The position numbers and the translations under genes were made by a program. DNA of 64,000 nt from a phage: the sequence record PZ445530.1, one strand, 5' to 3'. This document shows, piece after piece, positions 13,902-62,679 of this stretch. The notes below the pieces were generated by a model that did not search any database, was not told where the DNA came from, and saw only the letters and a list, made by a program, of their open reading frames with translations. Every line of letters begins with the position of its first letter. Within the stretch, counting starts at the first letter, position 1.

Positions 13902-14480
13902 TTACTTAATCCTTGCAGTTACAGTAGCGCTATACCCCATGTAGTTATGAGACATAAAGAATGTAAGCCCTTTAAGTTCAGGATTCTTTCTAAGAAATCG
14001 TTTCAATTTTCGAATGCAATTAACACCATGATCATAGTTTGAGAAATTAAATTTAATACCCTGCTCCATCATAGTGCACACTTCTTCATGGGTATGCCAT
14101 TGTCTATCGTGGTCACAAAACCAGTAACCAATACCTTCTTTTTCTTGGATATGCAATCCCCAAAATACTTTATGCATTGGATATTTTGGTTTTCTACCAT
14201 GATAATGTAGTTTAATATTCACATGTGCCATTTTTTTTGTTACTCCGTTCTGTATCTGTGATAATGAGAATAGCAAACTGGGGTGTGTGCTGTCAACAAC
14301 ATTTTTAAGCGTTTTGGGGAAGTTTTTTGAAAGGTGGGTGTAATCCCAAGAGAGGGTGGAGTTATTGAAGGCACAGGCCTCTTTTGAGGCCTTAAAATCG
14401 ATTATGACACTTTGACGTAGCGCTCTGACAGAGCTGGAAAGCCAAAAGCAGTACCTACACTGCCGTACGCTATCCACCAT
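13902..14480 (-). CDS. hypothetical protein (192 aa)
   Basis: ORF in track; overlaps next ORF by 79 nt (start may be internal). Confidence 0.45.
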   Translation of the reverse strand: MVDSVRQCRYCFWLSSSVRALRQSVIIDFKASKEACAFNNSTLSWDYTHLSKNFPKTLKNVVDSTHPSLLFSLSQIQNGVTKKMAHVNIKLHYHGRKPKYPMHKVFWGLHIQEKEGIGYWFCDHDRQWHTHEEVCTMMEQGIKFNFSNYDHGVNCIRKLKRFLRKNPELKGLTFFMSHNYMGYSATVTARIK

Positions 14481-19331: not shown

Positions 19332-20126
19332 TTATTTAACGTGTTTGAAAATACCTGCCAACTCGGTCATTGTCATGCGGGTGGTCTTCATAAGATCTGT
19401 CATAGCTTTCTCCATAATTGGAGATACTACCATAAAGTTTCCTTTAGTGAAACCTTTATTCCAGTCGGTCACCAACAGGGGTTTAAGTCCAGCTCCAAGA
19501 CGTTCACCAGTTAAAGCACAGCATTTGCGAATATACGAACTCTTAAATTGGCTGAACGACAGATCAACTTTCATACCTACATCGTAGAACGTTTGACAAT
19601 AGAAAGTGTAAGCTTTGGCAATCTCAACATCATCAGGTAGTGCAGGAACCTCTTCTGTAAGCTCCTCTTCGACCTCCTGAGTCTCTTTTTCCTCTTCATG
19701 CACCTGTTGCGTCATTTCTTCAATCTCTTCTGTGATAGGCTCGTTTACAATGTCGGAAATGTGCTTCTTGGGTGCACGATAAGTAACTTTAGACATCGGT
19801 AGCATATCTTCCTCCTCTTCTTCGTCAAAGAGTGCTAGTTTATCCTCTTCCGTTCCATATTGCAAGATGAAATCTTCAAAAGTATAATCACCTTTCAATT
19901 TCTCCATACGCTCTTCGCTCAGGTGGAGCATCATCTGCTGGACAATTTTTCGATCAGTTTCGTCTTTAATCAAGACTGCAGTCTTTTTATCTACCAGACA
20001 GTCCTTTAGAGAGTTGCATCTCAATCCCACCACACAACAGTTATCAACCGCATAAGGACCTTCATCATCTATCCGCTCCAGAGATGGGTAGAAAGGATTC
20101 CCCAGCCCGTTTTCATCTGTGTGCAT
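19332..20126 (-). CDS. acidic hypothetical protein (264 aa; possible internal start at 19796)
   Basis: Glu-rich central region; contains internal MSKVTYRA encoded by a 27-nt sequence identical to the start of gene 21639-21995. Confidence 0.5.
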   Translation of the reverse strand: MHTDENGLGNPFYPSLERIDDEGPYAVDNCCVVGLRCNSLKDCLVDKKTAVLIKDETDRKIVQQMMLHLSEERMEKLKGDYTFEDFILQYGTEEDKLALFDEEEEEDMLPMSKVTYRAPKKHISDIVNEPITEEIEEMTQQVHEEEKETQEVEEELTEEVPALPDDVEIAKAYTFYCQTFYDVGMKVDLSFSQFKSSYIRKCCALTGERLGAGLKPLLVTDWNKGFTKGNFMVVSPIMEKAMTDLMKTTRMTMTELAGIFKHVK

Positions 20127-20381
20127 GTCAAAAGGTATAAGGGTATAGTCGCATACTCCATCTCCTAAAAGTTTTTTACCAAATAGGAGATATTCTTCCC
20201 ATGACAGGTCGAACTCTATATCTCGTTTCCGTGCGTTATTCTGTTTGCGTCTATATTTTTGAGCAAGCGCTCTAACTCTTCTGGTGTATAATATTTTTCA
20301 AGATTCATGAGTCGTCTCTCGTGCTCTGTAAGTGAAGAAATCGTATCAATTGTCTCAACAGATGTCAACATCAAAAACGTG

Positions 20382-29976: not shown

Positions 29977-30037
29977 TAAGATGTAAGTATAAAGGGGAGG
30001 CACTCCTCCCCACAAAAACTAAGGAGAGCACCAAACG

Positions 30038-31362
30038 ATGAGTAAAACCAAATTAGAACTTACCTGGATAGGTAAAAACGAGCGCAAAAAGTTAGAGCCG
30101 CACATTTTGTTAGAAGATTCTAGCAAGTCTTACCACAGCCAGAAAGTGACCGAAAACGATATTTTTGATAATAAACTGATTTTTGGAGATAACTTATTAG
30201 CATTGAAGGCGCTAGAGCAAGAGTACGCAGGCAAAGTGAAGTGTGTTTACATAGACCCACCATTCAACACCGGGAGGGCTTTTGAGCACTACGATGATAG
30301 CCTGGAGCATTCCATTTGGCTGGGCTTAATGAGGGATAGGTTAGAAATAATTCGTAATCTTCTAAGTGATGATGGGGTAATATTCGTTCACTTAGATGAT
30401 TGCGAAATGGCGTATTTAAAAGTTTTGATGGACGAGATTTTTGGTCGTGCAAATCAGTTAAATACCATATCGATGACCACAAATTCCCCTTCGGGATTTA
30501 AGGCAACGGGAGCCACAGTTTTCTCCACAGCAAACTTTTTGCTTGTATATGCAAAAGATCGCACCCAGAAACCGCTTAACAAAATCTATATACCTAAAGG
30601 GTATGATACCGGATATAACAAATACCTATTAAACCCGGATGATCATTATAAAAATTGGACGTGGTGCGGTATTGCCGATGCGTTTGCAAAGGCCAATGGC
30701 TATAAAGATGCAAAAGAAGCCAAGAAAAAACTGCCTGACACATTCGATAATGAATTAGCACAATTTGCAATTGATAATGCAGAACGTGTATTTCAATCTG
30801 TTGCAATTGGTGGTGGTGCTAAAATAAAGAGAAAAGAAACTATAGAGAAGTCAAAGAAAGATAGGGATAAGGTTTATGTACATCCAAATGAGGATGTTGA
30901 AGGATTTTATATCGCAAATGGTAGGCAAATGGTCTTTTACTCCAACAGGCTTTTGGAAATTGACGGTGATATGCAACCTGCGGAACTAATAACTGATGTT
31001 TGGACAGACATTAGTTGGAATGGAATAGCAAATGAAGGCGGCGTTAGTTTCAAAAATGGGAAAAACCAGAAGCGCTTTTGAAGCGGATTTTCGAAATGTG
31101 TACGCGAGAAGGTGATTTGGTATTGGATTCATTCGGTGGTTCGGGAACTACTGCCGCTGTAGCTCACAAGATGAAAAGACGTTGGATCTCCATCGAGATT
31201 GGTGATCATTGCCATACCCATATTATTCCGCGCTTGGAAAAAGTGATCGATGGGGAAGATCAAGGTGGTATTTCTAAGTCTGTAAACTGGCAAGGTGGTG
31301 GTGGCTTCCGTTATTACAAACTTGCCCCGACCTTAATTGCGAAAGATAAGTCTGATCAATAA
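30038..31362 (+). CDS. beta-class DNA amino-methyltransferase (N6A/N4C type), reading frame interrupted by a frameshift near 31048-31062
   Basis: Motif IV VYIDPPFN in frame A; conserved KPEALLKRI...GDLVLDSFGGSGTT (motif I) continues only in frame B; frames swap within an A-rich tract. Confidence 0.6.
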
Positions 31363-31375
31363 AGAGTACAATCAA

Positions 31376-32622: not shown

Positions 32623-33387
32623 TTGAAATTTATCTACAAAGAACACTACCACAAAGGTGTTGTGTGGAGTCTATTTGACGGGTCTGGTGGTGCAGTCATT
32701 GACTGGGCAAAAGCTGGGTACCTGTGCCTGTGCTTTAATGCAGAAGGCGCTGATCACGGCAGTTATGCAGAGGTGATCACCGATCATCCCAACATTCACT
32801 ATGTGGACTATTGGATCGACCCGTGGTTCCCTCAGGAAACTTTTTGCATGTATCCGGCTCCAGATTTTATTCTTGCATTTCCTCCGTGCACGCATTTAGC
32901 GGTATCAGGTGCTGCACATTTTAAGAAAAAGCTGGCTAAGGACCCCATGATCCAAATTAATGCTGTAAAGGATGCTCGGGTTGCGGAAGAGCTGGGAGAG
33001 ATTTACGATTGCCCGTGGCATGTAGAGAATCCTGTGGGTGTTATGTCCACACTGTGGCGCAAACCTGATTACCGTTTTCACCCTTCGGATTATGGCGGGT
33101 ATTTACCGGAAGATGATGTAAACCCATGGTTTCCTGAATTTATAGCTCCACGTGATGCCTATCCAAAAATAACTTGCGGCTGGATAGGTAATGGATTTAT
33201 AATCCCAGCCACAAAACCTGTCCCGCAAATAGTTGACGCGGTTAGCGGGTATTCCATGCAACACGCCAAGCTGGGTGGAAAGAGTGCAAGAACGAAGATG
33301 ATTCGAAGCCTCACACCACGTGGCTGGGCAAAAGCCGTATTCCTAGCAAACGAGCCTGTAGTAAGGAGCAGAATTAATGGGAAGTAA
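32623..33387 (+). CDS. C5-cytosine DNA methyltransferase-like protein (compact, non-canonical)
   Basis: TTG start 7 nt after AGGAGA; motif I-like SLFDGSGG, motif IV-like FPPCTHLAVSGA (Gln replaced by Thr), motif VI-like HVENPVG in canonical order. Confidence 0.45.
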   Translation: MKFIYKEHYHKGVVWSLFDGSGGAVIDWAKAGYLCLCFNAEGADHGSYAEVITDHPNIHYVDYWIDPWFPQETFCMYPAPDFILAFPPCTHLAVSGAAHFKKKLAKDPMIQINAVKDARVAEELGEIYDCPWHVENPVGVMSTLWRKPDYRFHPSDYGGYLPEDDVNPWFPEFIAPRDAYPKITCGWIGNGFIIPATKPVPQIVDAVSGYSMQHAKLGGKSARTKMIRSLTPRGWAKAVFLANEPVVRSRINGK

Positions 33388-50542: not shown

Positions 50543-50890
50543 ATGATCAGCGGGGCAAGTTTTATTATTGGCGCTATTGCTACGGCTTTAATTGTAAACA
50601 AGATCCAATCTAAAAACGAAAAAGAGAGCAACGCGCTCACAGAATACCCATTTTGGGTATTCAACGACAATGAAGACTACATTATCAAGTACAAGAATGA
50701 GAAGGGCGACCAGGTAACACCGCGACCGATCCCGGCCTACAAGATGCAAGAAACACTATACCGCCTAAAGGCTGGAGGCGCAAAAATCGTAGACTTTTGG
50801 GGATATGATTGCAAGGATCAGGAGGTTATAAAACGGCGTATCCGGGCTATTCAGGCCAATATTGAAGTTAGCAAGGGGGGGAATATATGA
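50543..50890 (+). CDS. membrane-anchored hypothetical protein (115 aa)
   Basis: ATG after aaaggagaaag; N-terminal hydrophobic segment; preceded by degenerate copy of palindromic element (about 50477-50510). Confidence 0.45.
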   Translation: MISGASFIIGAIATALIVNKIQSKNEKESNALTEYPFWVFNDNEDYIIKYKNEKGDQVTPRPIPAYKMQETLYRLKAGGAKIVDFWGYDCKDQEVIKRRIRAIQANIEVSKGGNI

Positions 50891-51637: not shown

Positions 51638-52262
51638 ATGACCACCGTTAACATTACCACAGGTTACAATTTATCTTTCGACGTGCTGACCGATGAACAA
51701 AAAAGAAAAAGCTATTGAAATGGTCCGCGAAAGAGAAGAACACAGCGGGGATAACTTTTTTGCAGAAAGTGTAATTGAAGACTACAAAGAACATATCTTT
51801 CCAGAGTATGGCCTTGAAGATACCAAGGTACATTGGTCCGGCTTTTGGTGCCAGGGCGACGGCGCGTCAATCAGTGCGGAAAACGTGGATTTAGAAAAAT
51901 TCTTGCGTAAAGTCAAGTCTCTGACTAAATTCCGCTCAATTCGTCACTTGTTCGGCACAATGCACGATGGCGAGCTATCCGCAAGTGTTGAGCGTGATCC
52001 ATATAGCCGCTATAGTCACGAAAACACTGTAAGCGGGTACATCGATACTACATGGCTAGACCTGACAGCCAAGCAAGAAAGTAAGGTTGAAGAGCTGGAA
52101 GAGTTGATCACCGAGAACGTACGGGAACTATCCCGCAAGGTTTACGTAGACCTGGAGCAAGCTTATCTTGAACAATTTACTACCGAAAACCTGATCGGCC
52201 TTATCGAGGCCAATGATTGGCGGTTTGATGTGGATGAATATGGAGAGATGAGTTTTTCATAA
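51638..52262 (+). CDS. hypothetical protein; frame interrupted after 26 codons at an A-rich tract (about 51699-51712), continuing in another frame as track ORF 51693-52262
   Basis: Cassette-positioned ATG at 51638 hits a stop after 26 codons; the long ORF resumes in a different frame within GAACAAAAAAGAAAAAGC and its own ATG lacks an SD. Confidence 0.4.
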
Positions 52263-53650: not shown

Positions 53651-53850
53651 ATGAGCAACAATATCCGCGTTATTAACTTCAAAAAGAAGAAAAAATTGCC
53701 GTGCTGATTGACGGTCAAGAAATCTTCAAGGGCGACTATGAAGATCATCAAACGGCGATTAGTATCACTCGCGTGATTGGTTATCATAATTTCTACCCCC
53801 AAGGCGCTGAGGCAGCAGTTAAACGAATCAAAGAGATTGTAGGCCTGTAA
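53651..53850 (+). CDS. small hypothetical protein; frame interrupted at an A-rich tract (about 53683-53696)
   Basis: Cassette ATG at 53651 hits a stop after 17 codons; a 51-codon ORF continues in another frame through stop at 53848-53850; one extra A in the run would fuse them. Confidence 0.35.
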
Positions 53851-62348: not shown

Positions 62349-62400
62349 TAGTCTTCCTCCAGGTTCAAAGGCCCTAAGATTTCATATGCCAGATTAGAAG

Positions 62401-62679
62401 TTACCAGAGGGTCTTCTGCATCTTTAGTATTATACCACCCGTGAATAACCAGAGTCCCACACTCTGTTTCATATCTAACTGGAACTGTTCTGCAGTTTCC
62501 TCATCCATCTCTAAGATCTCCATAAGGTACTTGATGTTAGGAAGGTATGCAGCTGTTACAGTTCCCTCTACCAGACCTTCGGGCCAACCTACATCCGGAT
62601 GACAAGTAGGAACCAGATTAGTCAGCTTAATAGTGTACGCTTTTTCTGCACGAGCCTTCAGTAACGGGTCAATCTTCAT
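62401..62679 (-). CDS. hypothetical protein (92 aa)
   Basis: RBS gaggagg; overlap with upstream gene. Confidence 0.5.
   Translation of the reverse strand: MKIDPLLKARAEKAYTIKLTNLVPTCHPDVGWPEGLVEGTVTAAYLPNIKYLMEILEMDEETAEQFQLDMKQSVGLWLFTGGIILKMQKTLW

Follow-up and report, generated by a model that had tools for sequence, protein, structure and literature searches.

The genome of a Vequintavirus (an rV5-like E. coli myovirus; record PZ445530.1), analysed here over a stretch of 64,000 nucleotides (the window), encodes a DNA amino-methyltransferase whose reading frame is broken where a run of six adenines in its relatives is represented by five. Our preferred explanation, with a probability of about 0.5, is that the A5 form is genuine and that a presumably dispensable anti-restriction gene has recently lost its function. 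In itself this is an ordinary feature, namely a known phage methyltransferase gene disabled, or apparently so, by the contraction of a homopolymer, and an equivalent split is already present in the GenBank annotation of another phage. Only two points are mildly unusual: the recurrence of alleles one base longer or shorter at the same tract, and the fact that the gene is nearly identical to a Type III mod gene of the host.

Organization of the disrupted methyltransferase gene

An earlier note on this DNA had proposed that a single amino-methyltransferase is encoded in two frames, one (frame A) carrying the DPPF of motif IV and ending at the stop at 31079-31081, and the other (frame B) opening only after a stop at 31045-31047. 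Both frames are read as such in the sequence (Table 1), and the interpretation as one gene of the amino-methyltransferase family is borne out by the ORFs, by the motifs and by matches of both pieces to the same Pfam profile. The ATG at 30038, which is preceded by a Shine-Dalgarno-like sequence, is also the annotated start in the phages JohannBauhin, MaxBurger and naswa. Frame A contains motif IV and the target-recognition region, followed by an out-of-frame tail that ends in NGKNQKRF before the stop. Frame B, which is -1 relative to frame A (30038 = 2 mod 3; 31048 = 1 mod 3), is closed upstream by the TAG at 31045-31047, begins with FQKWEKPEALLKRIFEMCTREGDLVLDSFGGSGTT and remains open up to its TAA; its conserved part starts with the codon AAA at 31063 and comprises the KPEALL block, the AdoMet-binding motif I and the C-terminus. 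Motifs IV and I are thus not found in one uninterrupted frame in the window, motif I being read in the -1 frame.

When compared with the Pfam profile PF01555 (N6_N4_Mtase; gathering threshold 26.7 bits), frame A matched profile positions 1-177 with 77 bits, frame B matched positions 165-217 with 68 bits, and the fused protein of 441 residues matched positions 1-216 of 221 with 147.5 bits, each fragment singly as well as the fusion scoring above the threshold. As the profile recognizes both pieces and their fusion, frames A and B represent one gene and not a chance resemblance. The PHROG 67 family ('DNA methyltransferase') also matches end to end. The order of the elements, with motif IV followed by the target-recognition region and the KPEALL/motif I block, is that of the beta-class amino-methyltransferases, and the motif I region aligns to motif I of CcrM, M.MboIIA and M.PvuII; the product is accordingly assigned by its sequence to the beta-class DNA amino-methyltransferases of the PF01555 family.

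The native peptide across the junction, as seen in relatives, is ...SFKNGKKPEALL..., in which GGG AAA AAA CCA encodes G-K-K-P. The earlier reading of this block as 'WEKPEALL' has to be abandoned, as its 'W-E' is an out-of-frame translation of AAT GGG AAA. The same note was right in placing the change of frame at the A-run, but the range that it gave (31048-31062) covers just the start of the run. This tract and a second A6 tract further upstream, which is intact in the window, would be the two longest homopolymers of the gene in its intact form.

Table 1. Features of the methyltransferase locus and private indels elsewhere in the window (positions in the window)
Feature	Position	Strand	Basis or remark
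Shine-Dalgarno-like sequence AAGGAGAG	30021..30028	+	read from sequence; 5' of ATG 30038
Frame A, N-terminal methyltransferase ORF, 347 aa	30038..31081	+	ORF list; TGA 31079-31081
Catalytic motif IV, DPPF (within YIDPPF)	30254-30265	+	sequence and translation
Other A6 tract (KKK, codons AAG AAA AAA), unchanged in length	30725..30730	+	homopolymer list
Frame B continuation	31048..31362	+	translation; TAA 31360-31362
A5 tract, site of the frameshift	31061..31065	+	alignments; relatives have A6 (GGG AAA AAA CCA)
Motif I, FGGSG (AdoMet binding), in another frame than the N-terminal part	31132-31146	+	sequence and alignment
Out-of-frame remnant INKEYN (ATC AAT AAA GAG TAC AAT) of the host mod continuation	31355..31372	+	alignment
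Anti-sigma factor homologue, T5 vs T6 (+ strand)	T-run 20256-20260 (20246-20266); gene about 19332-20310	-	frameshift at about codon 16
G7 vs G6 in three comparators	50875-50881		last 4 or so codons of a 117-aa gene (bas53_0108 homologue)
A6 vs A5 in all 40 relatives listed	51699 (51693-51705)		first 20 or so codons of a 207-aa hypothetical shifted (bas53_0111 homologue)
A5 vs A6 in all relatives listed	53681 (53677-53690)		about codon 10 of a 66-aa hypothetical (bas53_0116 homologue)
2-nt (CA) insertion	near 62461, gene 62351-62679	-	109-aa gene (bas53_0143 homologue) split in two frames

Comparison with related phages

A segment of 2.2 kb around the gene matches 117 records in the phage collection, the best matches being JohannBauhin and MaxBurger with 99.8% nucleotide identity. 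The JohannBauhin homologue is a single CDS of 441 aa (bas53_0069; QXV81192.1) described as a 'putative N6 adenine methyltransferase'; the 'N6 adenine' label in the relatives is an annotation only, and the target base is here a prediction. The comparison with orthologues, which had been proposed in the earlier note, locates a 1-nt deletion in the A6 tract of an otherwise intact gene: relatives read AAT GGG AAA AAA CCA GAA where the window reads AAT GGG AAA AAC CAG, with one A fewer. A search with 91 nt spanning the site gave 76 matching records, without an identical one among them, and 59 of the 60 matches listed have one base more than the window; these 59 are all the listed INPHARED relatives in which the stretch is intact. 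As the intact relatives among the matches listed have the additional base, the allele of the window is a 1-nt contraction of A6.

The gene neighborhood is shared with other Vequintaviruses. In JohannBauhin, rV5 and JES2013 the same gene is preceded by a PIF1-type helicase and a 113-aa ORF, and is followed, as in the window, by small ORFs, a Dcm-like methyltransferase, a primase/helicase and the DNA polymerase; these homologues have one ORF of 441 aa with A6, whereas the window has two ORFs and A5. The methyltransferase-like gene downstream (32623-33384, + strand, 254 aa, 1.3 kb away; annotated in BASEL as a 'Dcm-like C5 cytosine methyltransferase') is unbroken here, with 98.8% amino acid identity to JohannBauhin, and public gene tables record no Pfam match for it. 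The methyltransferase is not mentioned in the rV5 genome paper or in the paper on the O157 typing phages (PMC4429339). Among the INPHARED records about 16 with MG0656xx accessions ('Campylobacter phage' A147, D1, C5 and others; host given as C. jejuni) are 98% identical to the E. coli Vequintaviruses in this region, and are probably mislabelled or contaminant genomes.

Possible recoding or reassembly of the two fragments

Three origins had been suggested for the split in the earlier note: a 1-nt homopolymer indel, a recent inactivation, and a -1 frameshift. The first two both agree with the A6 to A5 difference from the orthologues, and the third falls away. Lys-tRNA is slippery on A-runs, and a -1 shift after the AAA at 31061-31063 would yield exactly the native G-K-K-P-E, so that ribosomal frameshifting, or transcriptional slippage, at GGG-AAA-AAC might in principle restore the full-length enzyme. 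However, such a shift is not conserved, the 59 listed relatives with an intact stretch all being in frame at this position. The zero-frame GGG AAA AAC offers G AAA AAC, whose first base does not match, in place of a canonical X XXY YYZ heptamer; moreover, the 83 nt from the site have a minimum free energy of -16.8 kcal/mol against a mean of -16.7 kcal/mol for shuffled sequences (z = -0.04), which speaks against a stimulatory structure. An A5 run is also too short for efficient slippage by RNA polymerase. We accordingly reject programmed frameshifting, for want of a conserved shift, a slippery heptamer and a downstream RNA structure, and regard recoding of any kind at this site as highly improbable.

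Hardly more credit can be given to the idea that the 347-aa fragment and a C-terminal fragment re-initiated at TTG 31078 or ATG 31096 together form an active methyltransferase. The stop of frame A and the TTG overlap as TTGA (31078-31081), an arrangement suited to termination-reinitiation, and C-terminal ORFs of 88 or 94 aa have been called by gene callers in several assemblies. However, neither TTG 31078 nor ATG 31096 is preceded by a Shine-Dalgarno sequence, the re-initiated fragment would be deprived of the KPEALL part of the conserved block, and the split state is rare and scattered over lineages instead of being conserved.

Alleles of the A-tract

A survey of the tract recovered several alleles in addition to that of the window. 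Most phages have GGG-A6 or GGT-A6 and are in frame, as are two INPHARED records and an E. coli chromosomal gene with GGA-A6 (a run of A7). The -1 frame results from GGG-A5 in the window and in the Logan assemblies SRR24140670 and SRR27390182, and from GG-A6 in O157 typing phage 14, in ERZ27316607 with four similar contigs, and in ERR11477985 / JGI 2051223002 / SRR053014-15. A +1 allele, GG-A8, which gives a product of 389 aa, is found in SRR33769039 and SRR30400364. In a neighbor-joining tree based on 2876 gap-free columns, from which the counts of differences were also taken, the window differs from the in-frame MaxBurger and JohannBauhin at 15-17 positions, and from the two remaining genomes with A5 at 25 and at 69. 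Genomes carrying GG-A6 occupy at least two separate positions in the tree. Counted on this tree, the length of the tract has changed in at least five independent events.

Four of the assemblies with shifted alleles have an intact T6 tract in their anti-sigma factor gene, and the helicase, primase/helicase and polymerase around their methyltransferase are called at full length. Given the intact tract and the full-length neighbors, the methyltransferase shifts in these four assemblies are not a symptom of poor sequence. A close parallel is O157 typing phage 14 (KP869112.1), whose copy of the gene is also broken at this tract and yields ORFs of 347 and 88 aa, annotated as two GenBank CDSs (ECTP14_02412 and ECTP14_02411). 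It differs from the window in its allele, GG-A6, which was probably derived from GGA-A6, and in its background (85 differences in the 2876 columns). This phage is stated to have been sequenced on the Illumina MiSeq platform (PMC4429339).

The products of such alleles are also seen in protein collections. An exact look-up showed that the 88-aa C-terminal ORF, with its ATG start, had been called by itself on four public contigs, and a homology search recovered a cluster of truncated methyltransferase products in public data; exact look-ups in the public collection for the 347-aa product of the window and for the 94-aa product starting at TTG found neither. In IMG/VR the exact A5 pattern had 0 matches, and a variable-gap pattern able to catch A6 likewise had 0; as even A6 is missed, this collection is devoid of these phages and its zero for A5 is uninformative. 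The variable pattern further gave 11 JGI metagenome and 4 GTDB matches, all of them unrelated except UADI01, which has A6.

Knockouts of the gene are not confined to this tract. At the second A6 tract (30725-30730) the public truncated products P0127 (...EAKKNCL...) and P0134 (...EAKKKNCL...) represent a -1 and a +2 allele, respectively, the positions of the shifts having been deduced from the protein sequences together with the DNA of the window. Other public knockouts include the deletion of one A from an A3 run, an 11-nt duplication, and an in-frame deletion that takes out DPPF. In the metagenomic Vequintavirus scaffold ERZ28622804 scaffold_113 a deletion of 832 bp, equivalent to 30216-31047 of the window, has removed most of the methyltransferase; it is located at 2940-2955 of the compared stretch and is flanked by 8-nt microhomologies. 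Two sequences, a scaffold with an N-gap and a contig whose start lies within the gene, were not counted as split. The simplest reading of these alleles is that the gene is dispensable and has been lost again and again, mostly at its most slippage-prone sites.

These alleles also bear on the notion that the A6/A7 tract is maintained as a reversible ON/OFF switch of the phage methyltransferase, comparable to the repeats of the bacterial Type III mod genes, which are the classic phase-variable class of methyltransferases (phasevarions). In the phasevarions of Haemophilus, Neisseria and Helicobacter a repeat within the mod ORF switches the frame, and +1 and -1 forms are likewise found in the phage gene. 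The same tract has been both contracted and expanded in several lineages, with A5, A6, A7 and A8 forms of the repeat in the ORF occurring among isolates, and the second A6 tract also has -1 and +2 alleles. However, phasevarion tracts are long and their switching rates have been measured to be high, whereas the phage tract is A6-A7 in a lytic phage, well under the usual lengths for high-frequency switching, and any reversibility is putative. AAA AAA is, moreover, plain and common Lys-Lys coding in an AT-rich genome, and irreversible knockouts, such as the deletions and the duplication, speak for simple loss. We therefore consider a contingency switch improbable. Were it to operate, slippage might keep a mixture of methylase-ON particles, protected on rare cognate hosts, and OFF particles, though we would give such a mixture little chance; it is similarly doubtful that the OFF particles would be favoured where methylation is costly or is the target of methylation-dependent restriction. 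If true, this would be a phage counterpart of the bacterial phasevarions.

Indels in the window and the possibility of a miscall

A weightier alternative to a real null allele is an artefact of sequencing or assembly, in which one base of the run would have been missed and the DNA itself, with A6, would encode the whole protein of 441 aa. The site is a homopolymer and the remainder of the gene is without other defect, as expected of such an error. Furthermore, in a comparison over the corresponding 64 kb, homopolymers of at least five bases have a private length at 10 sites in the window, as against 4 in JohannBauhin, 2 in MaxBurger and 2 in naswa. Conserved genes of the window contain another 4-5 frame-breaking indels that are private to it, as against 0, 0 and 1 in the three comparators. 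The ORF-based screen for split genes gave many spurious antisense ORFs, and the cases retained are those that match annotated genes and are intact in all comparators.

The frame-breaking cases are diverse in their effects (Table 1). In the anti-sigma factor homologue residues 1-17 and 15-325 are in different frames, and its T5 allele is common only to the window and vB_Eco_Alma among 116 related records; that it is shared solely with a record that contains many split genes also counts in favour of an error. The indel at 51699 leaves an ORF of 189 aa from an ATG at 51693, that at 53681 leaves just an ORF of 49 aa with a GTG start, and the homologue of bas53_0143 is intact in all three comparators. 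Intergenic private homopolymer differences in the window are located at 14231, 49021, 51094, 54714 and 55436. Taken as a whole, this pattern of indels is what homopolymer base-calling errors produce.

Split genes are also encountered in two of the records used for comparison. vB_Eco_Alma (OV101294.1, 55000-104999) has rIIB, the primase/helicase (in three parts), the DNA polymerase (in two) and a tail fibre assembly gene in pieces, with 18 private short indels in 50 kb, and looks like an unpolished, error-prone assembly. In naswa (MN850595.1) the lateral tail fibre gene is divided into two CDSs by a private G3 in place of G4 (at about 10220 of the compared stretch); in the window and JohannBauhin alike, this large fibre protein is about 1875 aa long.

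A rough estimate, with about 7 errors over 278 runs of at least five bases, puts the chance of an error striking this particular tract at a few percent. However, tract shifts occur in otherwise clean independent assemblies, GGG-A5 included, and in a phage stated to be Illumina-sequenced, making a real A5 entirely plausible; the natural frequency of shifted alleles, again roughly estimated, is also a few percent and of the same order. Three of the other frameshifts in the window lie within the first 20 codons of their genes, with downstream starts present, and one in the last 4 codons, a placement that tolerated real mutations would show as well. With both rough estimates at a few percent, we rate a miscall as a serious possibility at somewhat below even odds, and prefer a real null allele.

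Origin from a host Type III mod gene

The closest solved structures to the phage protein are Type III Mod subunits, namely those of H. pylori (6k0w), EcoP15I (4zcf) and Mbo45V (7dsu), which are recovered with E = 1e-28 to 5e-19 and share the order of motif IV, target-recognition region and motif I. They are distant homologues only, of 567-644 aa, and at least EcoP15I Mod acts with a Res subunit. A far closer homologue is an E. coli 'site-specific DNA-methyltransferase' of 567/568 aa (WP_213054361.1-like), with 96% amino acid identity over residues 1-439 and 94.5% nucleotide identity between the genes. Of 5426 complete E. coli genomes, only 24-29 carry this mod gene. Strain APEC E16002 has it within a defence island, directly 5' of a gene for a 912-aa protein with a match to the Pfam ResIII domain and to PADLOC REase_III (634 bits); the E. 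coli Mod protein itself matches PADLOC MTase_III end to end with 944 bits.

The E. coli Type III Mod shares its motifs and the poly-A tract with the phage gene, the tract being A7 in the host, but the phage copy is without the C-terminal 128 or so residues and without a Res partner. Relative to the host gene, all phage copies examined have an 11-nt deletion after the KDK codons, which creates the phage stop, and the host homology ends about 20 nt past this deletion (window 31340-31375 in the alignment), leaving an out-of-frame remnant of the host continuation (Table 1). No ResIII protein is found among the neighbors of the phage gene, which are instead the PIF1-type helicase and small ORFs; in the absence of an adjacent ResIII protein the phage gene is an orphan and not a restriction-modification system. 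Of the attributes of a Type III system only the Mod family membership is thus seen, the adjacent Res and the full-length C-terminal region being absent. To judge from the alignments, the phage gene is an orphan and C-terminally truncated copy of a host Type III mod gene, of which it represents the first 1.3 kb; its high identity, the truncation and the remnant past the stop suggest that capture from a host defence island was fairly recent. Its role is presumably self-methylation against that Type III system. In the BASEL study the Vequintavirinae were found to be 'exceptionally susceptible' to the restriction-modification systems tested (PMC8594841), which is in keeping with a narrow usefulness of the methylase.

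Proposed loss of a dispensable anti-restriction gene

Under the preferred reading of a real null allele, a slippage-type deletion of one nucleotide would have converted the A6 tract, formed by the Lys-Lys codons of the NGKKPE block, into A5. Translation would then stop after 347 residues, with DPPF and the target-recognition region retained and the AdoMet-binding FGGSG domain lost; from this motif content the truncated product is predicted to be inactive and the A5 allele to be OFF (null). The gene would be useful only on hosts with the rare Type III system, and the recurrence of knockouts at its most mutable sites may be explained by its mattering only on such hosts. We presume the gene to be dispensable; from the shifts at the same tract in clean assemblies and in the phage stated to be Illumina-sequenced, we infer that the deletion lies in the DNA and not in the base calls.

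In annotations, this pair of ORFs is best entered as a single, disrupted methyltransferase gene (a pseudogene, or 'frameshift, verify sequence'), and neither as separate genes nor as a recoding site. Recurrent slippage at one tract would offer a cheap marker to distinguish methylase-ON from methylase-OFF stocks. The locus also bears on the susceptibility of Vequintaviruses to restriction-modification systems despite the methyltransferases that they encode (PMC8594841), and would provide a small example of an anti-restriction gene that was captured from a Type III system of the host and later lost repeatedly.
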